Positions 33,466-47,898 of a DNA stretch of 64,000 nt are shown piece after piece. The DNA is from Escherichia coli (lineage in GTDB: Bacteria > Pseudomonadota > Gammaproteobacteria > Enterobacterales > Enterobacteriaceae). The DNA lies in NCBI RefSeq assembly GCF_016903815.1, contig NZ_CP069973.1; one strand, 5' to 3'. The notes under the pieces are model-generated. The model was not told the DNA's origin. It saw only the letters and a list, made by a program, of their open reading frames with translations, and did not search any database. Numbering within the stretch: the first letter of the stretch is position 1; each line of letters starts with the position of its first letter. The translations under genes and the position numbers were made by a program.

Positions 33466-36400
33466 ATGAGGCACTTTATCTTTCAGGACGAAAAATCACA
33501 TAAATTCTGGGCGGTGGAGCAACAGGGAAACGAGTTGCATATCTGTTGGGGAAAAGTTGGCACCAAAGGGCAAAACCAGGTAAAAAGTTTTGCGGATGCT
33601 GCGGCAGCGGCAAAAGCGGAGCTTAAGCTGATCGCAGAGAAAACGAAAAAAGGCTATGTGGAAAATGCTTTAGCAAACGTGCATATCCCCCCCATCACCA
33701 AAGCCACTCCTGAAGTTGAAACCTCCCCTGAGAGTAAAAACAAACGCCCATGGGTGGCTGATGATGCAGTCATTCCGGTAACTGGCGATATTAATCGATT
33801 TGCTTTTCCTCATCGCTCTCGCCCCAGAGAGATCAATTATCTGTACAAAGATGGCCAAATATGGAAGCGCATCGCGAATAACACCAGGGCATATGACCCC
33901 GACAATAATTACCGCTCTTATCCTGAAAACTGGCAGCTGGCGTTTGCCGAGTTACAAAGGCGAATTCTGAATAATCAACAAACAGGAAGTATACAATCTG
34001 ATGCGGCATTGCTCTGGAATTTATGGAACTCTTACTCTACAGATGAACTGGTCGATGACTTAGTCATTCGCTGTGGTCTGGAAACTACCGTTGAAATCGC
34101 CCTTCTCGCTCTTCAACTCAAATATAAACCAGTAAAAGCCGACGTCACCACCATTATTCCCCCTGATCTCAAAGCAGAATCACTACCGAACTGGCATCAA
34201 CGTCTATGTCATCATCTTTCACTCGCTTCAGAAGATGAGTGGCAACGCTGTGTAGATAAAGTTCTCGCTGCTATTCCCTCGCTATCCCCAGCACGGCAAC
34301 CTTTTGCGGCGTTACTGCTCCCTGAACGCCCGGATATTGCCAATGCTATGGCGCTACGTTATGCAGATCAAAACGTTCCGGCGATGACCTGGTTAAGACT
34401 GGTGGTAACCGATGACGCCGCTCTGACTACAGCAGAAAAATACGACTTCCCACCGTTGTATCATGATTTTCGCGCTTATCTGGCAATGTTGCTGGCAAAT
34501 AATGGGGTGCGCGGTGTAAGCCGGATACTTCTTGAGTTTACGGAAGAGCATTCTGACAATCCCACTTATCTCTTCGAGCGCATCAGCGAGACTGAAGATC
34601 TTGTCAAATGGCTATGGAAAACGAATCACCCGGATGCGATTCAAATTCTGATCCTCGGTGTAATTGGCAAGAAAAAGCACCTGGAATACTTAAGCAAAGC
34701 CTGTCAAAAACATCCCGCTGCGGCTCTTGCCGCTTATGCAACTTTACTGGCAATACATGAAGATGCACAGTGGCGTAAAGCGCTTGTCAAACTGATTACC
34801 GCCACGCCAGATTTAGTCACTGACGTCATTCCCTGGGTTAATGCTAAAGCGGCAGGCATCTTATCTGAATGTCGTACTCAGTTAGTCGCTGAAGAATGTG
34901 AATACGCCACTGCGGATATGTTGCCGGAGCTGTTTGTCGCTCCACCGTGGGTAATAAATAAGAAAACGAATGTAATACCCGTATTTGATTTACCGGTGCT
35001 TCCCATCCCTGCAGTCACTGACATCACGCCAGGAATTACAGAGTTAATCAGTCATACTGACATATCCAGATTCAGTGAAATCGCGCAATATCAGTCATCA
35101 CAGCAAACCTTATTTACCGACCTGCCACTAATTGAAAAAGAAAGCTGGGAGACATCTTTCATTCCTTTTACACCAGAACAACAAATCCTTTGGCAATTAG
35201 GTTTTAATGAATGGCTGCATTGCGAAGATGACTTACATGAAAAAAAATATATACCGCAAAGCGCTGTTGATGCCTTGTTGCGCTTTGATTTTCCAGCACT
35301 AAAAGCTGAGTTTGCGAAATATCACAACAATGCCAACAAAAGCTGGAATCTATCTGCGCTTTGTTACTTACCGGGACAACAGGCGATTTCATTTCTCAAC
35401 CAAATAATCATTGAGGAGCGATATTCAGGTGAGAAAGAGATTCTGGCAGTTTTTGGTAGTACGGCCATTCCTGCGTTTATGACCTGCTTGCAACGAGATC
35501 ATCAACGACTGTGGATATTCACCCTCTTTATTGGGGCCAGTGAACTAGCCTTACCAATGGCGCAGCGGTTACAGAAAAAAATGGCTTACAAGGATGCCAT
35601 TAATTGGCTGGCAAATAACCCGCGCCATGCCGCCGCCGGGCTACTGCCTTTGGCGCTGGGCAAACCGTGCCAAAATCGGGAATATGCCCGCCAGGCATTC
35701 CGCCTGCTAGTGAAATTAAACCAGCGAGAAACGATTGAAGAAATCGGCCGGAGATACAACCAACCTGATGTTTTAGCTGCGCTGGCAACATTGTTCGATA
35801 GCGATCCGCTGGAAGAATATCCCGCTAAAATCGCCCCACTGCCCGGCTTTTATCAGTTCACCTTATGGCGCAGACCACGGCTTAAAAGTAACAACCTGCC
35901 TCTGCCAGATGACGCTATGCGCCACCTGGGCACAATGTTGAGCTTTCCACGCGACATTACCTCCTACGCTGGGCTGGCGACCATCAAAGAGACCTTCACC
36001 CACGAATCACTGGCTGACTTTGGCTGGGATCTCTACACGGCATGGACAGAAGCTGGCGCACCCGCAAAAGAAAACTGGGCATTTACTTCGCTTGGGATTT
36101 TAGGCAATGACGACACCGCACGTAAATTAACCCCGCTTATCCGTGCCTGGCCGGGTGAATCCCAGCATAAACGCGCGGTTTACGGGCTGGATGTATTAGC
36201 TGATATTGGCAGCGATGTTGCGCTAATGCTGCTTAATGGCATCGCGCGAAAAATTAAATTCAAAGCATTACAGGAACATGCCCGCGAGAAAATCAACATA
36301 GTTGCTGAAAACCGTGGGCTGACTATGGCTGAACTGGAAGACCGCCTGGCTCCAGATTTAGGGCTTGATAACAGTGGCTCGCTGATACTGGATTTCGGCC

Positions 36401-37263
36401 CACGTCAATTCACCGTTGGTTTTGACGAAACCTTAAAACCTGTAGTGCACGATGCAAACGGCAAAGTCCTGAAAGATTTACCCAAACCAAATCAGAGCGA
36501 TGATCAAACACTGGCAACTGACTCCGTTAACCTCTTCAAACAATTGAAGAAAGATGTGCACGCCATTGCCAGCCAGCAGATTGATCGTCTGGAGCAGGAT
36601 ATGTGCCAGCGCAGACGCTGGACGGCAGAGCAGTTCCGCCTGTTTCTGGTGGAGCATCCGCTGGTACGTCACTTAACCCGACGGGTGTTATGGGGGGTAT
36701 ATACTGAGGAAAACACGCTGATCGCCTGCTTCCGGGTCGCAGAAGACAGCACTTACAGCGATGCGCAGGATGAGTTATTCACGCTGCCAGCAGGAAACAT
36801 CGGTATACCGCATGTGCTGGAAATATCTCCTGAATCCGCCACTGCATTTGGGCAAATTTATGCTGATTACGAAAAGCTTCCTCCCTTTCGCCAACTCGAT
36901 CGTGGTTATTACCACCTTACTGATAATGAACGTGATACCCATGAATTGATACGCTGGCAAGGACGTCTTTGCCAGGCCGGGCGCATTGTCGGGCTGGAAC
37001 GTCGAGGCTGGCAACGTCTGGAAGAAAGCGGCAGCGTCTATGCGATGCGCAAATCTACCCCTTATGGCGCTCTCGAACTTGAAACAGAACATTTTTCATT
37101 AATTTATGGCGAAACGGGGTATAGCGACCTGCTACCTGTTGAAAGCGTAAAAATCACTTCACCAGGGGAACGCTACAGTACACAGCCCTCGCTCACGTTC
37201 TCCGCGCTTGATGCCATCACCGCCAGCGAACTCATTAACGACATCGAATCACTTTTTGATTAA
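33466..37263 (+). CDS. molR: MolR-family giant protein, intact (1265 aa), N-terminal WGR-like module
   Basis: N-terminus HKFWAVEQQGNELHICWGKVGTKGQ resembles the WGR fold; long helical body; first gene after the metG terminator. Confidence 0.8.
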   Translation: MRHFIFQDEKSHKFWAVEQQGNELHICWGKVGTKGQNQVKSFADAAAAAKAELKLIAEKTKKGYVENALANVHIPPITKATPEVETSPESKNKRPWVADDAVIPVTGDINRFAFPHRSRPREINYLYKDGQIWKRIANNTRAYDPDNNYRSYPENWQLAFAELQRRILNNQQTGSIQSDAALLWNLWNSYSTDELVDDLVIRCGLETTVEIALLALQLKYKPVKADVTTIIPPDLKAESLPNWHQRLCHHLSLASEDEWQRCVDKVLAAIPSLSPARQPFAALLLPERPDIANAMALRYADQNVPAMTWLRLVVTDDAALTTAEKYDFPPLYHDFRAYLAMLLANNGVRGVSRILLEFTEEHSDNPTYLFERISETEDLVKWLWKTNHPDAIQILILGVIGKKKHLEYLSKACQKHPAAALAAYATLLAIHEDAQWRKALVKLITATPDLVTDVIPWVNAKAAGILSECRTQLVAEECEYATADMLPELFVAPPWVINKKTNVIPVFDLPVLPIPAVTDITPGITELISHTDISRFSEIAQYQSSQQTLFTDLPLIEKESWETSFIPFTPEQQILWQLGFNEWLHCEDDLHEKKYIPQSAVDALLRFDFPALKAEFAKYHNNANKSWNLSALCYLPGQQAISFLNQIIIEERYSGEKEILAVFGSTAIPAFMTCLQRDHQRLWIFTLFIGASELALPMAQRLQKKMAYKDAINWLANNPRHAAAGLLPLALGKPCQNREYARQAFRLLVKLNQRETIEEIGRRYNQPDVLAALATLFDSDPLEEYPAKIAPLPGFYQFTLWRRPRLKSNNLPLPDDAMRHLGTMLSFPRDITSYAGLATIKETFTHESLADFGWDLYTAWTEAGAPAKENWAFTSLGILGNDDTARKLTPLIRAWPGESQHKRAVYGLDVLADIGSDVALMLLNGIARKIKFKALQEHAREKINIVAENRGLTMAELEDRLAPDLGLDNSGSLILDFGPRQFTVGFDETLKPVVHDANGKVLKDLPKPNQSDDQTLATDSVNLFKQLKKDVHAIASQQIDRLEQDMCQRRRWTAEQFRLFLVEHPLVRHLTRRVLWGVYTEENTLIACFRVAEDSTYSDAQDELFTLPAGNIGIPHVLEISPESATAFGQIYADYEKLPPFRQLDRGYYHLTDNERDTHELIRWQGRLCQAGRIVGLERRGWQRLEESGSVYAMRKSTPYGALELETEHFSLIYGETGYSDLLPVESVKITSPGERYSTQPSLTFSALDAITASELINDIESLFD

Positions 37264-37275
37264 AAGGACTTTGCA

Positions 37276-40200
37276 ATGAAAACCTATATTTATCAGGACG
37301 AAAAATCACATAAATTCTGGGCGGTGGAGCAGCAGGGAAACGAACTGAATATCAGTTGGGGCAAAGTCGGCACCAACGGGCAAAGTCAGGTAAAAAGCTT
37401 TGCAGATGCTGCGGCGGCGGAAAAAGCGGAACTCAAGCTGATTGCGGAGAAAACGAAAAAGGGGTATGTGGAACATGCGGAGAATGCTACATCGAAACAT
37501 ACTCGAACGGTAACGAAATCTCTCGAATTATCTGACTTTTCTACCATCATTCAGGAACAGCCCTCAGTTACACCAGAATTCTACGTGGCTGACAAAAATA
37601 CAGACGTTATTTTACCGTGGCTGGCAAAAGATATTGCTGTCGTTTTTCCGCTTGAAGTCGTACCCACCACCTTAAGCCATCGCCGCTTTCCCGGAGATCC
37701 TGTTACACCTGTAGATAAATTAACCCAGTTACGTCGCTTAGCCTGTGGCGTGTCGCAACGGGATAACAAAACAGCTACATTTGACTTCAGCGCCTGTACT
37801 TTAGAGTGGCAAAACTTCATCGCTCAGGCGATCGATCTGATTAACAGCCCGAAAACGACAAAATTACCATCACCGGTAATGGCTGTACTCGCGGCACTTG
37901 AACTGCACTGCACGAGATATAAAGAGCGTGCGGATGTTATGGATCAGATTATTCAGGAAGGCGGTCTGGAATATGCTACTGATGTAATAATACATCTTCA
38001 ACAAATATCTATTGAATGGGATTATGTCAACAATAATATTGTTTTCCTGTCGTCTGGCATTTCACCTGATTATTTGCAGCAATATTCCAGCTTTGAATTA
38101 CGCCTACGTAAACATTTATCACTGGCGGAAGAGTCTCTCTGGCAAAAATGTGCACAAAAACTTATTGCCGCAGTTCCACATATTCCAGAATGGCGGCAAC
38201 CATTAATTGCTTTGTTATTGCCCGAAAAACCAGAAATTGCACATGAAATTGCCCAGCGTCTACTGGGGCAAAAGAAATTACCCTCGCTGGAGTGGCTAAA
38301 AATAGTGGCGACTGATGAGCACATTCTTGCCTCATTAGAAAAATATCACGAGCCATATGCCATTTTTGATGATTACTATTGTGGTGCGATATGGTCAGCC
38401 ACCGTATTACAGGAGCAAGGTGTTGCGGCCCTGCCCCGATTTGCTCCCTATGTCGCAAGTGACTACTGCGCCGATGTGTTGCGTCATATCAATCATCCGT
38501 TCGCATTAACACTGCTTATACGTGTAGCAGGGCATACTAAACGCTGTCACGATCGAATGACGAAAGCCTGCGCTGCGTTCCCACACGCAGCACTGGCAGC
38601 ACTGGCGGAACTTCTAGTGCAAAAAGAAGAGAATAGTTGGCGCATTATGCTAATGACGATGCTTATCTCGCAACCGACACTAGCAGAACAGGTCATTCCC
38701 TGGCTTTCGACACCCGCAGTTGCAGTGCTGAAATCATGCCAGCAACAACTGACACAGCCCTCAAACCATGCCAGCGCCGATCTACTGCCGGCCATAGTAG
38801 TCTCCCCACCATGGCTTTCGAAAAAGAAAAAATCGCCGATTCCAGTGCTTGATTTAGCACCATTAGGTATTGAGCCAATCAGTTATCTGACAGAAGAAAT
38901 CAGTAATCAACTTTTGGCGAAATATATCTGGTATTCAAAACACATCACGGTTAGTCATGAAGAAAGTACTGCCAATCTGTTGGCAAGGATGGGTTTTCAA
39001 CGACGGATCGCTGGTACATATATTAAAGCTCCCGAAGCGGTAGTTGAGGCATGGCTAAATGAAGATTATTCAACTTTAATAAGTGAATTTAAGGTGTTTC
39101 ATTCACCTACCGGGCATTATTGGCATTTGGGGATTTTGACAACATTGCCGCTGGAGAAAGCAGTAAGAGCATGGAATGCCCTTACTCTATCTCCGCATAC
39201 CGATACCGAATACGCCATGTTACATTTTGGACTCAAAGGATTACCTGGGTTAGTAAACTCACTTGCACGCTATCCACAGGAAGCCTTGCCCATAACGAAT
39301 TACTTCGCAGCGAGTGAGCTGGCACCTGCCGTCGCCCGCGCCTTCAACAAACTCAAAACCCTACGACAAGACGCCCGCACCTGGCTGCTGAAATACCCGG
39401 AACACGCCATTACCGGCCTGCTGTCTGCGGCGCTCGGCAAAGCCGGTGAAGCACAGGATAACGCCCGCGCTGCATTGCGTATGCTTACCGAAAACGGTCA
39501 TCAACCATTACTGCAAGAAATCGCCCGGCGTTATAACCAGCCGGAAGTAACAGATGCGGTGAACGCTATGCTTGCGCTCGATCCCTTAGATAATCACCCG
39601 ACAAAAATCCCCACTCTTCCGGCCTTTTATCAGCCATCGATCTGGACCCGCCCGGTATTAAAAGCAAATGCCCAATCACTGCCCGATAGCGCACTCCAGC
39701 ACCTCGGTGAAATGCTCCGCTTCCATCAGGAGGAGGCGCTGTATCCGGGATTATTGCAGGTGAAAGATGCCTGTACCGCCGACTCACTGGCTGAATTTGC
39801 CTGGGATCTGTTTACCGCCTGGCAGACCGCTGGCGCGCCGTCGAAAGAGAGTTGGGCGTTCACTGCGTTAGGCGTTCTCGGTAACGATGACACCGCCCGC
39901 AAACTGACGCCATTAATACGCGCCTGGCCTGGTGAATCCCAGCATAAACGCGCCACCGTCGGGCTGGATATCCTCGCCGCTATCAGTAGTGATATCGCCC
40001 TGATGCAGCTTAACGGCATTGCCCAGAAACTGAAATTCAAAGCATTACAGGAGCGGGCGAAAGAGAAAATTGCCGACATTGCCGAAAGTCGCGAACTGAC
40101 GGTAGCGGAGCTTGAAGATCGGTTAGCACCGGCTCTCGGTCTGGATGATAACGGTTCGCTGCTGCTGGATTTTGGCCCACGGCAGTTCACCGTCAGCTTT

Positions 40201-41070
40201 GATGAAACCTTAAAACCGTTTGTGCGCGATGTTTCCGGCAGCCGCCTGAAAGACTTACCTAAACCCAATAAAAGCGATGATGAATCACAGGCAAACGATG
40301 CTGTTAACCGCTACAAATTGCTGAAAAAAGATGCGCGTACCGTCGCCGCCCAGCAGGTAGCAAGGCTGGAATCCGCCATGTGCCTGCGCCGCCGCTGGTC
40401 GCCGGAAAACTTTCAGCTCTTCCTGGTTGAGCATCCGCTGGTTCGTCACTTAACCCGCCGTCTGATTTGGGGCGTTTATAGCGCCGAAAACCAGCTACAG
40501 GCGTGCTTTAGGGTGGCGGAAGATAACAGCTACAGCACCGCTGACGATGATCTTTTCACCTTGCAGGAAGGCGATATCTCTGTTGGCATTCCTCACGTTC
40601 TGGAAATATCACCGACGGATGCTGTCGCCTTTGGTCAGCTTTTTGCCGACTACGAACTGCTACCACCGTTCCGTCAGCTTGAACGTAACAGTTACGCCCT
40701 GACAGAAGCCGAGCGCAACGCCAGCGAACTGACCCGCTGGGCAGGCAGAAAATGCCCGAGCGGCCGGGTCATGGGGCTGGCAAATAAAGGCTGGATAAAG
40801 GGCGAACCACAGGATGGAGGCTGGATCGGATGGATGATCAAACCTCTCGGTCGCTGGTCGTTAATCATGGAAATCGACGAAGGTTTTGCGGTGGGTATGT
40901 CACCAGCCGATCTTAGCGCTGAGCAGGTCTTAAGCAAGCTGTGGCTATGGGAAGGCAAAGCGGAAAGCTATGGCTGGGGGAGTAATTCAACTCAGGAAGC
41001 GCAGTTCTCCGTGCTCGACGACATCACCGCCAGCGAACTCATTAACGATATTGAAGCCCTGTTTGAATAA
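37276..41070 (+). CDS. yehI: MolR paralog (1264 aa), N-terminal WGR-like module
   Basis: Collinear homology to molR along its length; near-identical N- and C-terminal ends; 12-nt gap after molR stop with AAGGA RBS. Confidence 0.8.
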   Translation: MKTYIYQDEKSHKFWAVEQQGNELNISWGKVGTNGQSQVKSFADAAAAEKAELKLIAEKTKKGYVEHAENATSKHTRTVTKSLELSDFSTIIQEQPSVTPEFYVADKNTDVILPWLAKDIAVVFPLEVVPTTLSHRRFPGDPVTPVDKLTQLRRLACGVSQRDNKTATFDFSACTLEWQNFIAQAIDLINSPKTTKLPSPVMAVLAALELHCTRYKERADVMDQIIQEGGLEYATDVIIHLQQISIEWDYVNNNIVFLSSGISPDYLQQYSSFELRLRKHLSLAEESLWQKCAQKLIAAVPHIPEWRQPLIALLLPEKPEIAHEIAQRLLGQKKLPSLEWLKIVATDEHILASLEKYHEPYAIFDDYYCGAIWSATVLQEQGVAALPRFAPYVASDYCADVLRHINHPFALTLLIRVAGHTKRCHDRMTKACAAFPHAALAALAELLVQKEENSWRIMLMTMLISQPTLAEQVIPWLSTPAVAVLKSCQQQLTQPSNHASADLLPAIVVSPPWLSKKKKSPIPVLDLAPLGIEPISYLTEEISNQLLAKYIWYSKHITVSHEESTANLLARMGFQRRIAGTYIKAPEAVVEAWLNEDYSTLISEFKVFHSPTGHYWHLGILTTLPLEKAVRAWNALTLSPHTDTEYAMLHFGLKGLPGLVNSLARYPQEALPITNYFAASELAPAVARAFNKLKTLRQDARTWLLKYPEHAITGLLSAALGKAGEAQDNARAALRMLTENGHQPLLQEIARRYNQPEVTDAVNAMLALDPLDNHPTKIPTLPAFYQPSIWTRPVLKANAQSLPDSALQHLGEMLRFHQEEALYPGLLQVKDACTADSLAEFAWDLFTAWQTAGAPSKESWAFTALGVLGNDDTARKLTPLIRAWPGESQHKRATVGLDILAAISSDIALMQLNGIAQKLKFKALQERAKEKIADIAESRELTVAELEDRLAPALGLDDNGSLLLDFGPRQFTVSFDETLKPFVRDVSGSRLKDLPKPNKSDDESQANDAVNRYKLLKKDARTVAAQQVARLESAMCLRRRWSPENFQLFLVEHPLVRHLTRRLIWGVYSAENQLQACFRVAEDNSYSTADDDLFTLQEGDISVGIPHVLEISPTDAVAFGQLFADYELLPPFRQLERNSYALTEAERNASELTRWAGRKCPSGRVMGLANKGWIKGEPQDGGWIGWMIKPLGRWSLIMEIDEGFAVGMSPADLSAEQVLSKLWLWEGKAESYGWGSNSTQEAQFSVLDDITASELINDIEALFE

Positions 41071-41079
41071 GGAAAGAGC

Positions 41080-43278
41080 ATGGACAAGGAATTACCGTGG
41101 CTGGCGGATAACGCCCAAGTGGAACTGAAATATAAAAAAGGCAAAACGCCGCTCAGCCATCGCAGTTGGCCGGGCGAACCGGTGCCTGTTATCACTGAAA
41201 GCCTCATCCAGACACTGGGTGATGAATTGCTACAAAAAGCTGAGAAGAAAAAAAACATTGTCTGGCGTTATGAAAATTTTTCACTGGAGTGGCAGTCGGC
41301 CATTACGCAGGCCATCAACTTGATTGGCGAACACAAACCCTCAGTTCCGGCCCGGACAATGGCGGCGCTAGCCTGTATCGCGCAAAATGATAGCCAACAG
41401 TTGCTCGACGAAATCGTCCAACAAGAGGGACTGGAATATGCGACTGAGGTGGTGATTGCACGCCAGTTTATTACACGATGTTATGAAAGTGATCCTCTGC
41501 TAGTGACATTGCAGTATCAGAACGAGGATTATGGCTATGGTTATCGATCAGAAACCTATAACGAATTCGATCTCCGACTGCGTAAGCATCTCTCTCTGGC
41601 AGAGGAAAGCAGCTGGCAGCGTTGCGCCGACAAACTCATTGCCGCACTGCCAGGAATAACCAAAGTTCGCCGCCCTTTTATTGCTCTGATCCTCCCGGAA
41701 AAACCAGAAATCGCCAATGAGTTGGTAAGCCTTGAATGCCCGTGGACTCATTTTCATTCTAAGGAGTGGTTAAAAGTTGTTGCTATTGACCCCAGAGCGG
41801 TGAGAAAACTCGAACGCTACTGGAGCCAGGATATATTTAGCGATCGGGAAGCCAGCTACATGTCGCATGAAAACCACTTCGGCTACGCGGCCTGCGCTGC
41901 CCTTTTGCGCGAACAAGGACTGGCAGCCGTTCCACGCCTGGCAATGTATGCCCATAAAGAAGATTGCGGCAGTCTGCTGGTACAAATTAACCATCCGCAG
42001 GTCATCCGCACCCTGCTGTTAGTTGCTGATAAAAACAAACCCAGCCTGCAACGTGTAGCTAAATACAGTAAAAATTTCCCCCATGCGACGCTTGCCGCAC
42101 TGGCAGAACTGCTGGCGCTAAAAGAACCACCTACGCGCCCTGGTTATCCAATCATCGAAGACAAAAAGCTGCCTGCACAGCAAAAAGCACGTGATGAATA
42201 CTGGCGTACGCTGTTACAAACGCTGATGGCATCGCAGCCACAACTGGCAGAAGAGGTGATGCCGTGGTTAAGTACTCAAGCCCGGTCAGTGCTGAATAGT
42301 TATTTATCGGCACCGCCTAAAACGGTTATTGATAGCACCGATAACAGCCAAATGCCTGAAATCCTCGTTTCACCACCGTGGCGTAGTAAGAAAAAAATGA
42401 CAGTTCCACGTCTTGATTTGGCACCGTTCGAATTAACGCCGCAAGTTTACTGGCAACCAGGCGAACGAGAGAGGCTTGCCGCCACTGAGTCTGCCCGTTA
42501 TTTCAGCACGGAATCTCTTGCGGAACGCATGGAACATAAAAGTGGACGAGTTGTACTACAGGAGCTGGGTTTTGGAGATGATGTATGGCTGTTTCTGAAT
42601 TATATACTCCCCGGAAAACTGGATGCTGCACGCAATTCACTCATTGTTCAGTGGCATTACTACCAGGGGCGGGTTGAAGAGATCCTGAATGGCTGGAACT
42701 CCCCGGAAGCACAATTAGCAGAACAGGCGCTTCGCAGCGGTCACGTAGAAGTGTTAATTAACATATGGGAAAATGACAGCTACTCACGCTATCGTCGGGA
42801 AAAGAGTATCTGGAACCTGTATTTATTGGCACAGTTGCCGCGTGAGATGGCTTTGACTTTCTGGCTACGTATCAATGAGAAAAAGCATCTGTTCGCGGGT
42901 GAGGACTATTTTCTCAGTATCTTCGGATTGGATGCTCTACCAGGTCTGCTGTTGGCTTTTTCACATCGTCCAAAAGAAACATTTCCGTTAATTTTAAATT
43001 TTGGCGCAACAGAACTGGCCCTGCCCGTTGCCCGCGTCTGGCGACGTTTCGCGGCGCAGCGTGATCTGGCTCGCCAGTGGATTTTACAATGGCCGGAACA
43101 TACGGCTACTGCACTTATCCCTCTTGTCTTCACCAAATCCAGCGATAATAGCGAAGCTGCATTACTTGCCCTACGTTTACTTTACGAACAGGGACATGGT
43201 GAATTGCTGCAAACCGCGGCAAACCGCTGGCAGCGTACAGATGTATGGCCTGCCCCGGTCTGGCAAAACTGGTGCTGA
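41080..43278 (+). CDS. Third MolR/YehI-family paralog (732 aa), no WGR module, ends at TGA
   Basis: Aligns to YehI residues ~100-800 (LPWLA, LRLRKHLSLAEES, PEKPEIA, VSPPW.SKKK blocks); starts 10 nt after yehI stop with AAGGAAAGA RBS; no P-loop. Confidence 0.6.
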   Translation: MDKELPWLADNAQVELKYKKGKTPLSHRSWPGEPVPVITESLIQTLGDELLQKAEKKKNIVWRYENFSLEWQSAITQAINLIGEHKPSVPARTMAALACIAQNDSQQLLDEIVQQEGLEYATEVVIARQFITRCYESDPLLVTLQYQNEDYGYGYRSETYNEFDLRLRKHLSLAEESSWQRCADKLIAALPGITKVRRPFIALILPEKPEIANELVSLECPWTHFHSKEWLKVVAIDPRAVRKLERYWSQDIFSDREASYMSHENHFGYAACAALLREQGLAAVPRLAMYAHKEDCGSLLVQINHPQVIRTLLLVADKNKPSLQRVAKYSKNFPHATLAALAELLALKEPPTRPGYPIIEDKKLPAQQKARDEYWRTLLQTLMASQPQLAEEVMPWLSTQARSVLNSYLSAPPKTVIDSTDNSQMPEILVSPPWRSKKKMTVPRLDLAPFELTPQVYWQPGERERLAATESARYFSTESLAERMEHKSGRVVLQELGFGDDVWLFLNYILPGKLDAARNSLIVQWHYYQGRVEEILNGWNSPEAQLAEQALRSGHVEVLINIWENDSYSRYRREKSIWNLYLLAQLPREMALTFWLRINEKKHLFAGEDYFLSIFGLDALPGLLLAFSHRPKETFPLILNFGATELALPVARVWRRFAAQRDLARQWILQWPEHTATALIPLVFTKSSDNSEAALLALRLLYEQGHGELLQTAANRWQRTDVWPAPVWQNWC

Positions 43279-43332
43279 CAGTGGGGCTTACAGCAGGCGG
43301 GAGAACAACTGCTAAAAACGGTTCTCACCCGT

Positions 43333-44772
43333 TTGCGCCAGCACCACTTGCCTGCTTCGACCGCGGATATGGCTGCCGCTCATCTGCATGCGATGGCGCT
43401 GGCACAGTTGCGCGGACATAAACTACCGTTACGCACTGACTGGCTGGATGCCATAGCAGGCTCGCTGATTAAAGAAGCCCTGAACGCGCCGTTGCCGTGG
43501 AGCTATCGCGGCGTTATTCATCCCGACACCGATCCGATTCTGCTAACGTTGATAGACACATTAGCGGGTGACGGATTCGGTAAACTTGCCCCTTCTACGC
43601 CACAACCGCCTCTGCCAAAAGATGTCACCTGCGAACTGGAACGTACCGCAATCTCTCTTCCGGCGGAGCTTACCTTAAATCGCTTTAACCCCAATGGACT
43701 AGCGCAAAGTCAGGTGTTACATCGGCTGGCAATACTGGAGATCCCAGGGATTGTACGCCAGCAGGGAAGCACACTGACACTTGCAGGCAACGGTGAAGAA
43801 CAGTGGAAATTAACCCGCCCGCTTAGCCAGCATGCGGCATTGATTGAGGCCGCCTGCTTTGGTGCCACACTCCAGGAAGCCGCACGCCATAAATTAGAAG
43901 CCGATATGCTGGACGCGGGTGGAATCGGCAGTATCACCACATGTCTTAGCCAGGCGGCGTTAGCGGGTCTGGCGTCCTTCAGTCAACAATTATTGGAGCA
44001 ACTCACATTATTAATCGCCCAGGAAAATCAATTTGCCGAAATGGGCCAGGCGCTGGAAGTGCTATATGCCTTATGGCGGCTGGATGAAATTAGCGGTATG
44101 CAAGGCGCGCAGATATTACAAACGACGTTATGCGCGGCTATCGATCGCACGCTGTGGCTGTGTGAATCTAACGGCAGACCAGATGAAAAGGAGTTTCACG
44201 CTCACCTGCATAGCTGGCAGGCGCTTTGCCATATCCTGCGCGATCTACATAGCGGCGTTAATTTACCCGGCGTTTCTCTTTCTGCGGCGGTAGCCTTACT
44301 GGACCGCCGCAGTCAAGCGATTCATGCCCCGGCGCTGGATCGCGGCGCGGCTCTTGGCGCACTGATGCGTCTGGAACATCCCAACGCCAGTGCCGAAGCG
44401 GCGCTGACAATGCTGGCGCAGTTATCCCCGGCACAATCCGGCGAAGCGCTGCACGGTTTGCTGGCGCTGGCCCGCCATCAACTGGCCTGTCAGCCGGCAT
44501 TTATCGCCGGTTTCAGTAGTCATTTAAATCAACTGAGTGACGACGATTTTATTAACGCCCTGCCCGATTTACGCGCGGCGATGGCCTGGCTACCACCACG
44601 AGAACGCGGGACGCTGGCGCATCAGGTGCTTGAGCATTATCAACTGGCGCAACTTCCCGTTTCGGCACTGCAAATGCCGTTGCATTGTCCACCACAAGCC
44701 ATTGCACATCATCAACAACTCGAACAGCAGGCACTGGCATCGCTGCAACACTGGGGAGTTTTCCATGTCTGA
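43333..44772 (+). CDS. Ala/Leu-rich protein, start uncertain (TTG 43333 or ATG 43369); same frame as upstream paralog
   Basis: 479-aa ORF unrelated to the MolR C-terminal domain; overlaps yehP start by 8 nt. May correspond to the C-terminal part of K-12 yehM (recollection, unverified). Confidence 0.5.
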   Translation: MRQHHLPASTADMAAAHLHAMALAQLRGHKLPLRTDWLDAIAGSLIKEALNAPLPWSYRGVIHPDTDPILLTLIDTLAGDGFGKLAPSTPQPPLPKDVTCELERTAISLPAELTLNRFNPNGLAQSQVLHRLAILEIPGIVRQQGSTLTLAGNGEEQWKLTRPLSQHAALIEAACFGATLQEAARHKLEADMLDAGGIGSITTCLSQAALAGLASFSQQLLEQLTLLIAQENQFAEMGQALEVLYALWRLDEISGMQGAQILQTTLCAAIDRTLWLCESNGRPDEKEFHAHLHSWQALCHILRDLHSGVNLPGVSLSAAVALLDRRSQAIHAPALDRGAALGALMRLEHPNASAEAALTMLAQLSPAQSGEALHGLLALARHQLACQPAFIAGFSSHLNQLSDDDFINALPDLRAAMAWLPPRERGTLAHQVLEHYQLAQLPVSALQMPLHCPPQAIAHHQQLEQQALASLQHWGVFHV

Positions 44773-45901
44773 ACTGAACGATCTTCTGACCACCCGTGAG
44801 CTACAACGCTGGCGATTAATTCTTGGCGAAGCGGCAGAAACGACGCTTTGTGGGCTGGATGACAACGCCCGGCAGATAGACCACGCGCTGGAGTGGCTGT
44901 ATGGGCGCGATCCTGAACGGCTCCAGCGTGGTGAACGCTCCGGTGGATTAGGTTGCTCAAATCTCACCACCCCTGAGTGGATCAACAGTATTCACACGCT
45001 GTTTCCGCAACAGGTGATTGAACGGCTGGAAAGCGATGCCGTACTGCGCTACGGCATTGAAGATGTGGTGACGAATCTCGACGTGCTGGAACGTATGCAG
45101 CCTTCTGAAAGCCTGCTACGCGCCGTTTTGCACACCAAACATCTGATGAATCCCGAAGTACTGGCTGCCGCCCGCCGGATAGTACGCCAGGTTGTTGAAG
45201 AAATTATGGCGCGACTGGCAAAGGAAGTTCGTCAGGCTTTTTCTGGTGTCCGCGATCGCCGTCGCCGCTCATTTATTCCACTGGCGCGAAACTTTGATTT
45301 CAAAAGTACGCTGCGCGCCAACCTGCAACACTGGCACCCGCAACACGGCAAGTTGTATATCGAATCCCCCCGCTTTAACAGCCGCATTAAACGCCAAAGC
45401 GAACAATGGCAACTGGTCTTACTGGTTGATCAAAGCGGATCAATGGTGGACTCGGTGATCCACTCAGCGGTGATGGCGGCCTGTTTATGGCAGTTACCCG
45501 GTATTCGTACCCATCTGGTGGCGTTTGACACCAGCGTGGTTGATCTCACGGCAGATGTTGCCGATCCGGTAGAGTTATTAATGAAAGTGCAATTAGGCGG
45601 CGGAACCAATATCGCCAGTGCCATGGAATATGGTCGGCAACTTATTGAACAACCAGTGAAAAGCGTCATTATCCTCGTGAGCGATTTTTACGAAGGGGGT
45701 TCATCATCATTACTGACGCATCAGGTGAAAAAGTGTGTCCAGAGCGGCATCAAAGTGCTGGGACTGGCGGCGCTCGATAGCACCGCAACACCTTGCTATG
45801 ACCACGATACGGCCCAGGCGCTGGTTAATGTCGGCGCACAAATAGCCGCCATGACACCGGGCGAGCTGGCATCATGGCTTGCGGAGAATCTTCAGTCATG
45901 A
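44765..45901 (+). CDS. yehP: von Willebrand factor A domain protein
   Basis: 378 aa from MSELNDLL; MIDAS-like DQSGSM...GGTN...SDF. Confidence 0.8.
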   Translation: MSELNDLLTTRELQRWRLILGEAAETTLCGLDDNARQIDHALEWLYGRDPERLQRGERSGGLGCSNLTTPEWINSIHTLFPQQVIERLESDAVLRYGIEDVVTNLDVLERMQPSESLLRAVLHTKHLMNPEVLAAARRIVRQVVEEIMARLAKEVRQAFSGVRDRRRRSFIPLARNFDFKSTLRANLQHWHPQHGKLYIESPRFNSRIKRQSEQWQLVLLVDQSGSMVDSVIHSAVMAACLWQLPGIRTHLVAFDTSVVDLTADVADPVELLMKVQLGGGTNIASAMEYGRQLIEQPVKSVIILVSDFYEGGSSSLLTHQVKKCVQSGIKVLGLAALDSTATPCYDHDTAQALVNVGAQIAAMTPGELASWLAENLQS

Positions 45902-47898
45902 ATTCACTACGTCCGGAATTATTAGAACTGACACCACAAGCTTTGACGGCGTTAAGCAATGCCGGTTTTGTTAAGCGCAGCCTTAAAGAACTGGAAAATG
46001 GCAACGTCCCGGAAATCAGCCATGAGAACGGCGCTTTAATCGCCACCTTCAGTGACGGTGTCCGCACCCAGCTGGCGAACGGTCAGGCACTGAAAGAGGC
46101 TCAGTGCAGCTGCGGGGCCAGCGGCATGTGCCGCCATCGCGTGATGCTGGTTTTAAGTTATCAGCGACTTTGCGCCACCACCCAGCCTACGGAAAAAGAA
46201 GAAGAGTGGGATCCGGCAATCTGGCTGGAAGAACTGGCTACCCTGCCCGATGCCACCCGCAAACGCGCGCAGGCACTGGTCGCTAAAGGTATCACCATTG
46301 AGTTGTTCTGTACGCCGGGCGAAATTCCCTCTGCCCGCTTACCGATGAGCGATGTACGTTTTTATTCCCGCAGCAGCATTCGTTTCGCACGCTGTGATTG
46401 TATTGAAGGAACACTTTGCGAACATGTCGTACTGGCAGTACAGGCCTTTGTCCAGGCCAAAGCGCAGCAAGCGGAATTTACTCATTTAATCTGGCAGATG
46501 CGCAGCGAACACGTCACATCATCTGACGATCCGTTTGCCAACGATGAGGGCGACGCGTGTCGTCAATATGTTCAGCAATTAAGCCAGGCGTTATGGCTTG
46601 GCGGCATCAGCCAGCCGCTTATTCATTACGAGGCTGCTTTCAGCCGCGCGCAGCAAGCGGCGGAACGCTGCAACTGGCGATGGGTGAGTGAATCGCTACG
46701 GCAACTGCGCGCCAGCGTTGATGCCTTCCACGCCCGCGCCAGCCACTATCATGCCGGAGAATGCTTACGTCAGCTTGCGGCATTAAACAGTCGATTAAAT
46801 TGCGCACAAGAGATGGCGCGGCGCGACAGTGTTGGTGAAGTTCCTCCGATGCCGTGGCGCACGGTCGTTGGCGCTGGCATTGCCGGAGAAGCAAAGCTTG
46901 ATCATCTGCGGCTGGTGTCTTTAGGTATGCGTTGCTGGCAGGATATTGAGCAGTATGGTTTACGCATCTGGTTCACCGATCCCGACACCGGCAGTATTTT
47001 GCACCTTTCGCGCAGTTGGCCGCGAAGTGAACAGGAAAACTCACCGGCAGCGACGCGTCGGCTATTTAGTTTTCAGGCTGGCGCACTGGCAGGTGGGCAA
47101 ATTGTTTCACAAGCAGCAAAACGCAGTGCCGATGGCGAGCTGTTGTTAGCTACCCGCAACCGCTTGAGTAGTGTTGTGCCGCTGTCGCCAGACGCCTGGC
47201 AAATGTTGAGCGCGCCATTGCGCCAGCCGGGCATTGTGGCTTTGCGGGAATATTTACGCCAGCGTCCCCCCGCCTGCATACGGCCTCTTAATCAGGTGGA
47301 TAACTTATTTATTCTGCCAGTCGCTGAGTGTATTTCACTCGGTTGGGATAGCAGCCGCCAGACGCTGGATGCGGAGGTAATCAGCGGCGAAGGTGAAGAT
47401 AACGTGCTGACATTATCCCTACCAGCCTCTGCCTGTTCGCCCTTTGCTGTTGAACGCATGGCAGCTCTGTTACAACAAACAGAGGACCCCGTGAGTATGG
47501 TTTCTGGCTTTGTCAGTTTTGTAGAGGGGCAATTGACACTGGAACCACAGGTAATGATGACAAAGACTCGTGCCTGGGCTCTGGACGCAGAAACTACGCC
47601 TGTGGCACCGCTACCTTCTGCCAGCGTTTTGCCTGTGCCGTCTACCGCTCATCAGTTGCTGATGCGCTGCCAGGCGTTACTTATTCAACTGCTCCATAAC
47701 GGCTGGCGCTATCAGGAACAGAGTGCTATTGGTCAGGCAGAGTTGCTGGCGAATGACCTCACCGCGGTGGGTTTTTATCGGCTGGCACATGTGTTGGCAC
47801 AATTTCGTAATACAGAAAGCGAGGCACGGGTAGAAGCAATGAATAACGGTGTTTTGCTTTGCGAACAATTATTCCCCATGCTTCAGCAACAAGGATGA
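45898..47898 (+). CDS. yehQ: SWIM zinc-finger protein, two SWIM motifs
   Basis: ATGA overlap with yehP; CSCGASGMCRHRV and CDCIEGTLCEHVV are both CxCx(n)CxH. Confidence 0.8.
   Translation: MNSLRPELLELTPQALTALSNAGFVKRSLKELENGNVPEISHENGALIATFSDGVRTQLANGQALKEAQCSCGASGMCRHRVMLVLSYQRLCATTQPTEKEEEWDPAIWLEELATLPDATRKRAQALVAKGITIELFCTPGEIPSARLPMSDVRFYSRSSIRFARCDCIEGTLCEHVVLAVQAFVQAKAQQAEFTHLIWQMRSEHVTSSDDPFANDEGDACRQYVQQLSQALWLGGISQPLIHYEAAFSRAQQAAERCNWRWVSESLRQLRASVDAFHARASHYHAGECLRQLAALNSRLNCAQEMARRDSVGEVPPMPWRTVVGAGIAGEAKLDHLRLVSLGMRCWQDIEQYGLRIWFTDPDTGSILHLSRSWPRSEQENSPAATRRLFSFQAGALAGGQIVSQAAKRSADGELLLATRNRLSSVVPLSPDAWQMLSAPLRQPGIVALREYLRQRPPACIRPLNQVDNLFILPVAECISLGWDSSRQTLDAEVISGEGEDNVLTLSLPASACSPFAVERMAALLQQTEDPVSMVSGFVSFVEGQLTLEPQVMMTKTRAWALDAETTPVAPLPSASVLPVPSTAHQLLMRCQALLIQLLHNGWRYQEQSAIGQAELLANDLTAVGFYRLAHVLAQFRNTESEARVEAMNNGVLLCEQLFPMLQQQG

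Follow-up and report, generated by a model that had tools for sequence, protein, structure and literature searches.

The gene yehQ was analyzed on a 64,000-nucleotide stretch of Escherichia coli DNA (contig NZ_CP069973.1, assembly GCF_016903815.1; hereafter the window), where it occupies positions 45898-47898 of the plus strand (2001 bases). Its product YehQ harbors two tandem zinc-finger motifs of the SWIM type which are conserved throughout the family, and on balance the protein may well act as the zinc-stabilized adaptor or recognition subunit within a conserved machine of five components that combines a MoxR ATPase with a von Willebrand factor A (VWA) protein. The members of this cassette are MolR/YehI (WGR-DUF4132), YehL (MoxR AAA+), YehM (DUF5682), YehP (VWA) and YehQ. 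The adaptor role is proposed from gene order and from analogy to other MoxR-VWA systems.

The gene matches yehQ from E. coli strain 7/2 (NZ_CP023820) at 100% identity and is annotated there as 'SWIM zinc finger family protein', and translation started at 45898 yields a polypeptide of 666 amino acids. The mechanical open reading frame opens 24 nucleotides earlier, at 45874, on an ATG located within yehP. The N-termini of the homologues align from the Met at 45898, and a GGAG is found about 10 nucleotides upstream of this codon. The double SWIM content of the E. coli protein is already in public annotation, as RefSeq and EcoCyc call the K-12 product 'SWIM zinc finger domains-containing protein YehQ', and therefore the presence of the motifs by itself adds little. 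At a coverage of at least 80%, yehQ is found in 5317 of the 5426 complete E. coli genomes.

The first-pass annotation of the window had noted two CxCxnCxH motifs in YehQ, about 90 residues apart. Both were found and both are SWIM-type units with three cysteines and one histidine (CCCH) as putative zinc ligands: site 1 reads CSCGASGMCRH (residues 70-80, positions 46105-46137) and site 2 CDCIEGTLCEH (residues 166-176, positions 46393-46425). Each site has the form CxCx5CxH, and the tandem arrangement stands, the exact distance being 96 residues. An HMMER search over 1.84 billion representative proteins returned 868 relatives of YehQ, and conservation was assessed in an alignment of 109 diverse full-length homologues with 25-47% identity. 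Here the ligands of site 1 (Cys70, Cys72, Cys78 and His80) are invariant (109/109), and those of site 2 are kept in 102 of the homologues (94%), with Cys166, Asp167, Cys168, Cys174 and His176 each conserved to at least 90%. The seven exceptions at site 2 have lost three to four ligands jointly and retain the flanking fold residues; such an all-or-none loss is the pattern expected of a four-ligand metal-binding tetrad. The spacer of five residues is present in 96 of the 109 sequences at site 1 and in 101 at site 2.

Were both motifs chance clusters of Cys and His residues without a role in metal binding, it would fit that only one SWIM domain lies above the curated Pfam threshold, namely unit 1 (PF04434, residues 56-88, 32.3 bits, E 7e-8, gathering score 19.6). 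Shuffling of the YehQ sequence, however, gives a chance expectation of 0.00025 CxCx5CxH motifs per protein, and of 0.0057 for the looser pattern CxCx2-25CxH, and neither the invariance of site 1 nor the mode of loss at site 2 is in line with such an origin. Furthermore, SWIM is the sole Pfam match for unit 2 of YehQ, as it is for two out of six homologous segments, and the two units are homologous at the profile level. When residues 1-100 are compared with residues 101-200, hhalign reports a probability of 95.8% (E 7e-9) over 83 columns with the ligands in register; the probabilities for unit 1 against unit 2 range from 91.6 to 95.8%, with negative controls at 0.1-0.2%. The N-terminal 200 residues of YehQ are thus shown, by profile comparison, to be a tandem duplication of a unit of about 90 amino acids, each copy ending in CxCx5CxH. 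As judged from the sequences, the motifs are confirmed as real and conserved and a chance origin is excluded, that explanation being exceedingly improbable. N-terminal to both sites, a helix (residues 19-30, positions 45952-45987) carries the strongly conserved motif L-x-N-x-G-x-V-K-R-A-x-K, of which Asn21, Gly23, Lys26 and Arg27 are more than 90% conserved; it is a candidate docking surface.

The AlphaFold2 model of YehQ, calculated with the family alignment, has a mean predicted local distance difference test score (pLDDT) of 93.3 and a predicted template modeling score of 0.91, and the N-terminal 212 residues modeled separately reach a pLDDT of 94.6. According to DSSP, strands 56-59 and 69-70 are followed by helix 79-93 in the first unit and strands 152-155 and 164-166 by helix 175-190 in the second, so that at both sites the CxC closes a β-strand and the CxH starts a long helix. 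This predicted arrangement fits the one which a SWIM finger should display. The top Foldseek match of the N-terminal model in the PDB is ZSWIM8 (9rwz_N), albeit a weak one (E 0.15, probability 0.80). Matches to Polo-box domains, with probabilities of 0.03-0.09, were dismissed.

The SWIM family (PF04434) includes bacterial SNF2 ATPases, transposase-derived proteins of the MuDR/FAR1 type, MEKK1 and the ZSWIM proteins. YehQ shares with it the CxCxnCxH signature and the succession of strands and a helix with the CxH at its N-terminus, unit 1 passing the Pfam threshold and unit 2 remaining below. It differs from the family by its two tandem units, which are part of duplicated modules of about 90 amino acids and have a short spacer of five residues, and by their fusion to helical bundles and OB-like barrels instead of a helicase, transposase, kinase or cullin adaptor.

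A long helical C-terminus, as described in the first-pass annotation, is not what the model depicts; the SWIM pair is followed by two OB-like barrels with one helical bundle before and another after them. The best structural matches of the two β-rich domains are RPA70, HIN, POT1 and Teb1, with marginal E-values, and the assignment of an OB-like fold to the predicted barrels is reasonable. When the C-terminal domains were scanned individually, no OB family was among the Pfam matches at E up to 10, and comparison of the two β-domains with each other by hhalign gave a probability of 1.2%, i.e. homology between them is undetectable.

From these barrels it could be argued that YehQ is primarily a nucleic-acid sensor, in which the OB-like barrels and the SWIM pair bind single-stranded DNA or RNA and join with MolR's WGR domain to form a nucleic-acid-triggered AAA+/VWA system for defense, conflict or DNA damage. 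We consider this possible but rather unlikely. The structural matches are marginal, neither an OB nor a single-stranded-DNA-binding protein family is matched in Pfam even at E 10, and within residues 325-562 no aromatic residue is conserved at 80% or more in the family alignment. The only conserved basic residues of the barrels are Arg338 and Arg409, barrel 2 has a net charge of -9 in the window allele (family mean -3), and YehQ as a whole is acidic. In contrast to the tandem OB binders RPA70 (DBD-A/B), POT1, Teb1 and HIN-200, YehQ thus lies outside the sequence families, shows no conservation of aromatic or basic binding residues and has an acidic second barrel; the likeness to these proteins may reflect the fold only.

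Searches of PDB sequences with YehQ, its family profile and the N-terminal profile gave nothing relevant; YehM and YehP remained unmatched as well, and MolR was matched through its WGR domain only. NCBIfam contributed nothing informative for YehQ.

The genomic surroundings of yehQ are conserved. In all four distant metagenomic loci the genes are arranged as WGR/DUF4132 (bracketed as the first member), AAA_5 (MoxR), DUF5682, VWA_CoxE and YehQ. A genome scan with one genome per species gave 80 loci, 69 of which are long enough to contain the whole cassette. The scan employed the narrower alignment A4, A2 and A3 being too diverse, and the 80 loci are therefore biased towards Proteobacteria; they stem from Enterobacterales, Burkholderiales, Xanthomonadales, Deltaproteobacteria, Mycobacteriaceae and Propionibacteriaceae. 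Each of the 69 full-length loci encodes MolR/YehI (in one to three copies), YehL, YehM, YehP and YehQ on a single strand, with MolR placed after YehQ in five Burkholderia loci. The order of the cassette is thus shown to be conserved across Proteobacteria and Actinobacteria, with genes that overlap or nearly abut. The only real exception is found in Betaproteobacteria bacterium MS502-89 (L078:7125-16252), where YehP-YehQ-MolR occur without YehL and YehM ahead of them; instead, this locus encodes a protein with Schlafen/AlbA_2, HATPase_c_4 and Fic-like_C domains, the stop codon of which abuts the yehP start. Apart from this locus YehQ, with its duplicated SWIM module and OB-like barrels, is invariably accompanied by the four other members of the cassette. 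About 98% of the complete E. coli genomes contain the cassette, and its conservation extends from Enterobacteria to Mycobacteria.

These surroundings, too, argue against YehQ being primarily a sensor of nucleic acids. Phages lack the family and plasmids rarely carry it, the cassette has a fixed position within the core genome of E. coli and housekeeping genes as neighbors in other taxa, and PADLOC-DB 2.0 gave no match for six proteins of the window (YehQ, YehP, the YehM remnant, the truncated YehI and both MolR paralogues). In hns/stpA mutants yehL and yehM are up-regulated, and H-NS occupies the intergenic region upstream (PMC3686432). A more far-reaching version, in which the cassette is an undescribed nucleic-acid-responsive AAA+/VWA machine, YehQ and the WGR protein MolR sensing DNA or RNA structure and driving ATP-dependent remodeling as an H-NS-silenced conflict or genome-surveillance system within the E. 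coli core genome, appears improbable to us.

Within the cassette YehQ is most intimately linked to YehP. As had been noted before, yehQ is coupled to a VWA gene: the yehP stop codon and the yehQ start codon share the ATGA at 45898-45901, a 4-nucleotide overlap, and in the window and the four metagenomic loci the spacing ranges from this overlap to a gap of 18 nucleotides. YehP matches VWA_CoxE with an E-value of 1e-71, and its metal-ion-dependent adhesion site (MIDAS) motif DxSxS is intact, with Thr and Asp candidates downstream. One metagenomic protein of 778 amino acids (P0060) comprises a VWA_CoxE domain (residues 31-208) and a YehQ-like region in a single polypeptide; this may be a true fusion of YehP and YehQ or else an artifact of gene calling.

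The nature of the partners raises the question of whether the CCCH sites handle metal, with YehQ holding or delivering it and the cassette acting as a metallocenter-assembly chaperone like CoxD-CoxE-CoxF, NorQ-NorD or the chelatases. YehP belongs to VWA_CoxE and has a weak likeness to a cobaltochelatase subunit, YehL weakly matches Mg-chelatase and AAA+ families of the CbbQ/GvpN type, and the neighboring molR was historically called 'molybdate metabolism regulator', a name whose basis we take to be old and disputed. On the other hand, CxCxnCxH in a strand-helix context is the SWIM signature, reportedly described by Makarova and colleagues in 2002 and said to be regarded as a structural zinc site. 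Moreover, no metalloenzyme gene is conserved beside the cassette in the 80 loci and the metagenomic loci, and site 2 can be lost while its fold residues stay. According to the introduction of PMC3893208, most characterized MoxR-VWA pairs do mature metalloenzymes; nevertheless, a metal-handling function of YehQ is quite unlikely.

We therefore return to YehQ as an adaptor. MoxR-VWA pairs analogous to the yeh cassette are CbbQ-CbbO, NorQ-NorD and CoxD-CoxE. In common with these and with RavA-ViaA, the cassette has an AAA_5/MoxR gene adjoining a VWA gene with an intact MIDAS, translationally coupled. It adds three obligatory partners, namely the DUF5682 protein, the double-SWIM/OB protein YehQ and the WGR-DUF4132 protein; in the window, the ATPase is missing. 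RavA-ViaA is one of the characterized pairs on which the analogy draws (PMC3893208), and YehL is the type member of the uncharacterized YehL subfamily of MoxR (Snider & Houry, as cited in that article).

By this analogy, a YehL hexamer would supply ATP-driven remodeling and YehP would bridge YehL to a partner via its MIDAS site. YehQ, co-translated with YehP, would contribute binding surfaces: each of its CCCH sites would hold one structural zinc ion, and the SWIM pair together with the OB-like barrels would engage MolR/YehI or YehM, or else nucleic acid. YehQ would thus work with YehP, and additionally with YehL in those strains that have yehL. The earlier suggestion of an adaptor or sensor component is in this respect a reasonable inference.

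Several observations weigh against the adaptor. Unit 2 scanned alone reaches only 17.2 bits for SWIM (E 0.0038), below the Pfam gathering score of 19.6, and the ZSWIM8 match of the N-terminal model is non-significant at its E-value of 0.15. The searchable literature yielded no experiment on YehQ or on the cassette. Finally, damage to the cassette is tolerated both in K-12, with an amber codon in yehQ and molR as a pseudogene, and in the lineage of the window, with its yehL deletion; consequently, the cassette is dispensable under many conditions. Literature matches to 'yehQ' were mostly noise from author names and peptide strings, besides one false match from an entrapment database and one entry in a strain table of a butanol-tolerance mutagenesis.

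Compared to K-12, the window lacks about 4 kb comprising the 3' third of yehI, yehK, yehL and the 5' third of yehM. Codon ~726 of yehI is joined in frame to codon ~252 of yehM at a microhomology (43248-43258), and the resulting yehI-yehM fusion ends nine codons further on by a change of TGG to TGA at 43276-43278. No MoxR-class AAA+ gene adjoins the cassette in the window, yehL being deleted, whereas one is present in the 69 full loci and in K-12. The YehQ of the window is thereby left without its cognate ATPase, and the yehL promoter region controlled by H-NS is gone as well; this YehQ still has an intact reading frame but is probably an inactive remnant. The deletion junction is confined to 94 of the 5426 complete E. 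coli genomes; an ST131-type background is suggested by the exact-match strains and by PMC9334617.

Given the amber codon and the molR pseudogene of K-12 and the yehL deletion of the window's lineage, neither background suits functional work. Broken versions of the cassette therewith occur in common laboratory and clinical lineages. Of the seven MoxR subfamilies, one is defined by YehL, for which the searchable literature yielded no experimental study of function.

Within E. coli, yehQ shows unusually high divergence. In K-12, a change of GAG to TAG at codon 615 (window position ~47740; L002:18943-18945) shortens the protein to 614 amino acids at the expense of most of the C-terminal helical bundle, whereas the window allele encodes all 666. 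In total, 4638 of 5363 E. coli yehQ records are only 90-95% identical to the window allele. The synonymous divergence (dS) of yehQ from K-12 is 0.21, as compared to 0.10 for the adjoining yehP, and metG is 97.5% identical. The ratio of nonsynonymous to synonymous divergence (dN/dS) of yehQ is 0.10, i.e. the gene is under purifying selection. An old allelic split or recombination is thus a more likely source of the high divergence than relaxed selection.

Table 1. Features of the yeh region in the window. Domain boundaries within YehQ are given in amino acids (aa); pI, isoelectric point; CDS, coding sequence.
Feature	Positions	Strand	Basis or remark
Additional WGR + DUF4132 paralogue, 1265 aa	33466..37263	+	not in K-12
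Intact molR-type gene, WGR + DUF4132, 1264 aa	37276..41070	+	in K-12 yehF + yehH pseudogene
yehI truncated after ~726 codons, in-frame fusion to yehM, then stop	41080..43278	+	
yehM remnant (DUF5682, from codon ~252)	43249..44772	+	pseudogene
yehP, VWA_CoxE protein, MIDAS DQSGS at aa 222-226 (45428-45442)	44765..45901	+	stop overlaps yehQ start
yehQ CDS, 666 aa, full length	45898..47898	+	K-12 allele with amber at codon 615
SWIM unit 1 (aa 38-95), three strands, C70/C72 at strand end, C78/H80 starting helix 79-93	46009..46182	+	Pfam, conservation, model
SWIM unit 2 (aa 131-192), strands, C166/C168, C174/H176 starting helix 175-190	46288..46473	+	sub-threshold Pfam, hhalign, conservation
Helical bundle 1 (aa 216-311)	46543..46830	+	
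β-rich OB-like domain 1 (aa ~325-440), mildly basic family-wide (mean pI 8.9)	46870..47217	+	model
β-rich OB-like domain 2 (aa ~465-562), acidic (net -9 in window allele)	47290..47583	+	model
C-terminal helical bundle (aa 583-661), mostly missing from K-12 amber allele	47644..47880	+	model

Upstream of the deletion, the two intact WGR-DUF4132 genes encode products that are 43% identical to each other (33466-37263 and 37276-41070). Together with the truncated yehI they form three divergent paralogues in succession.

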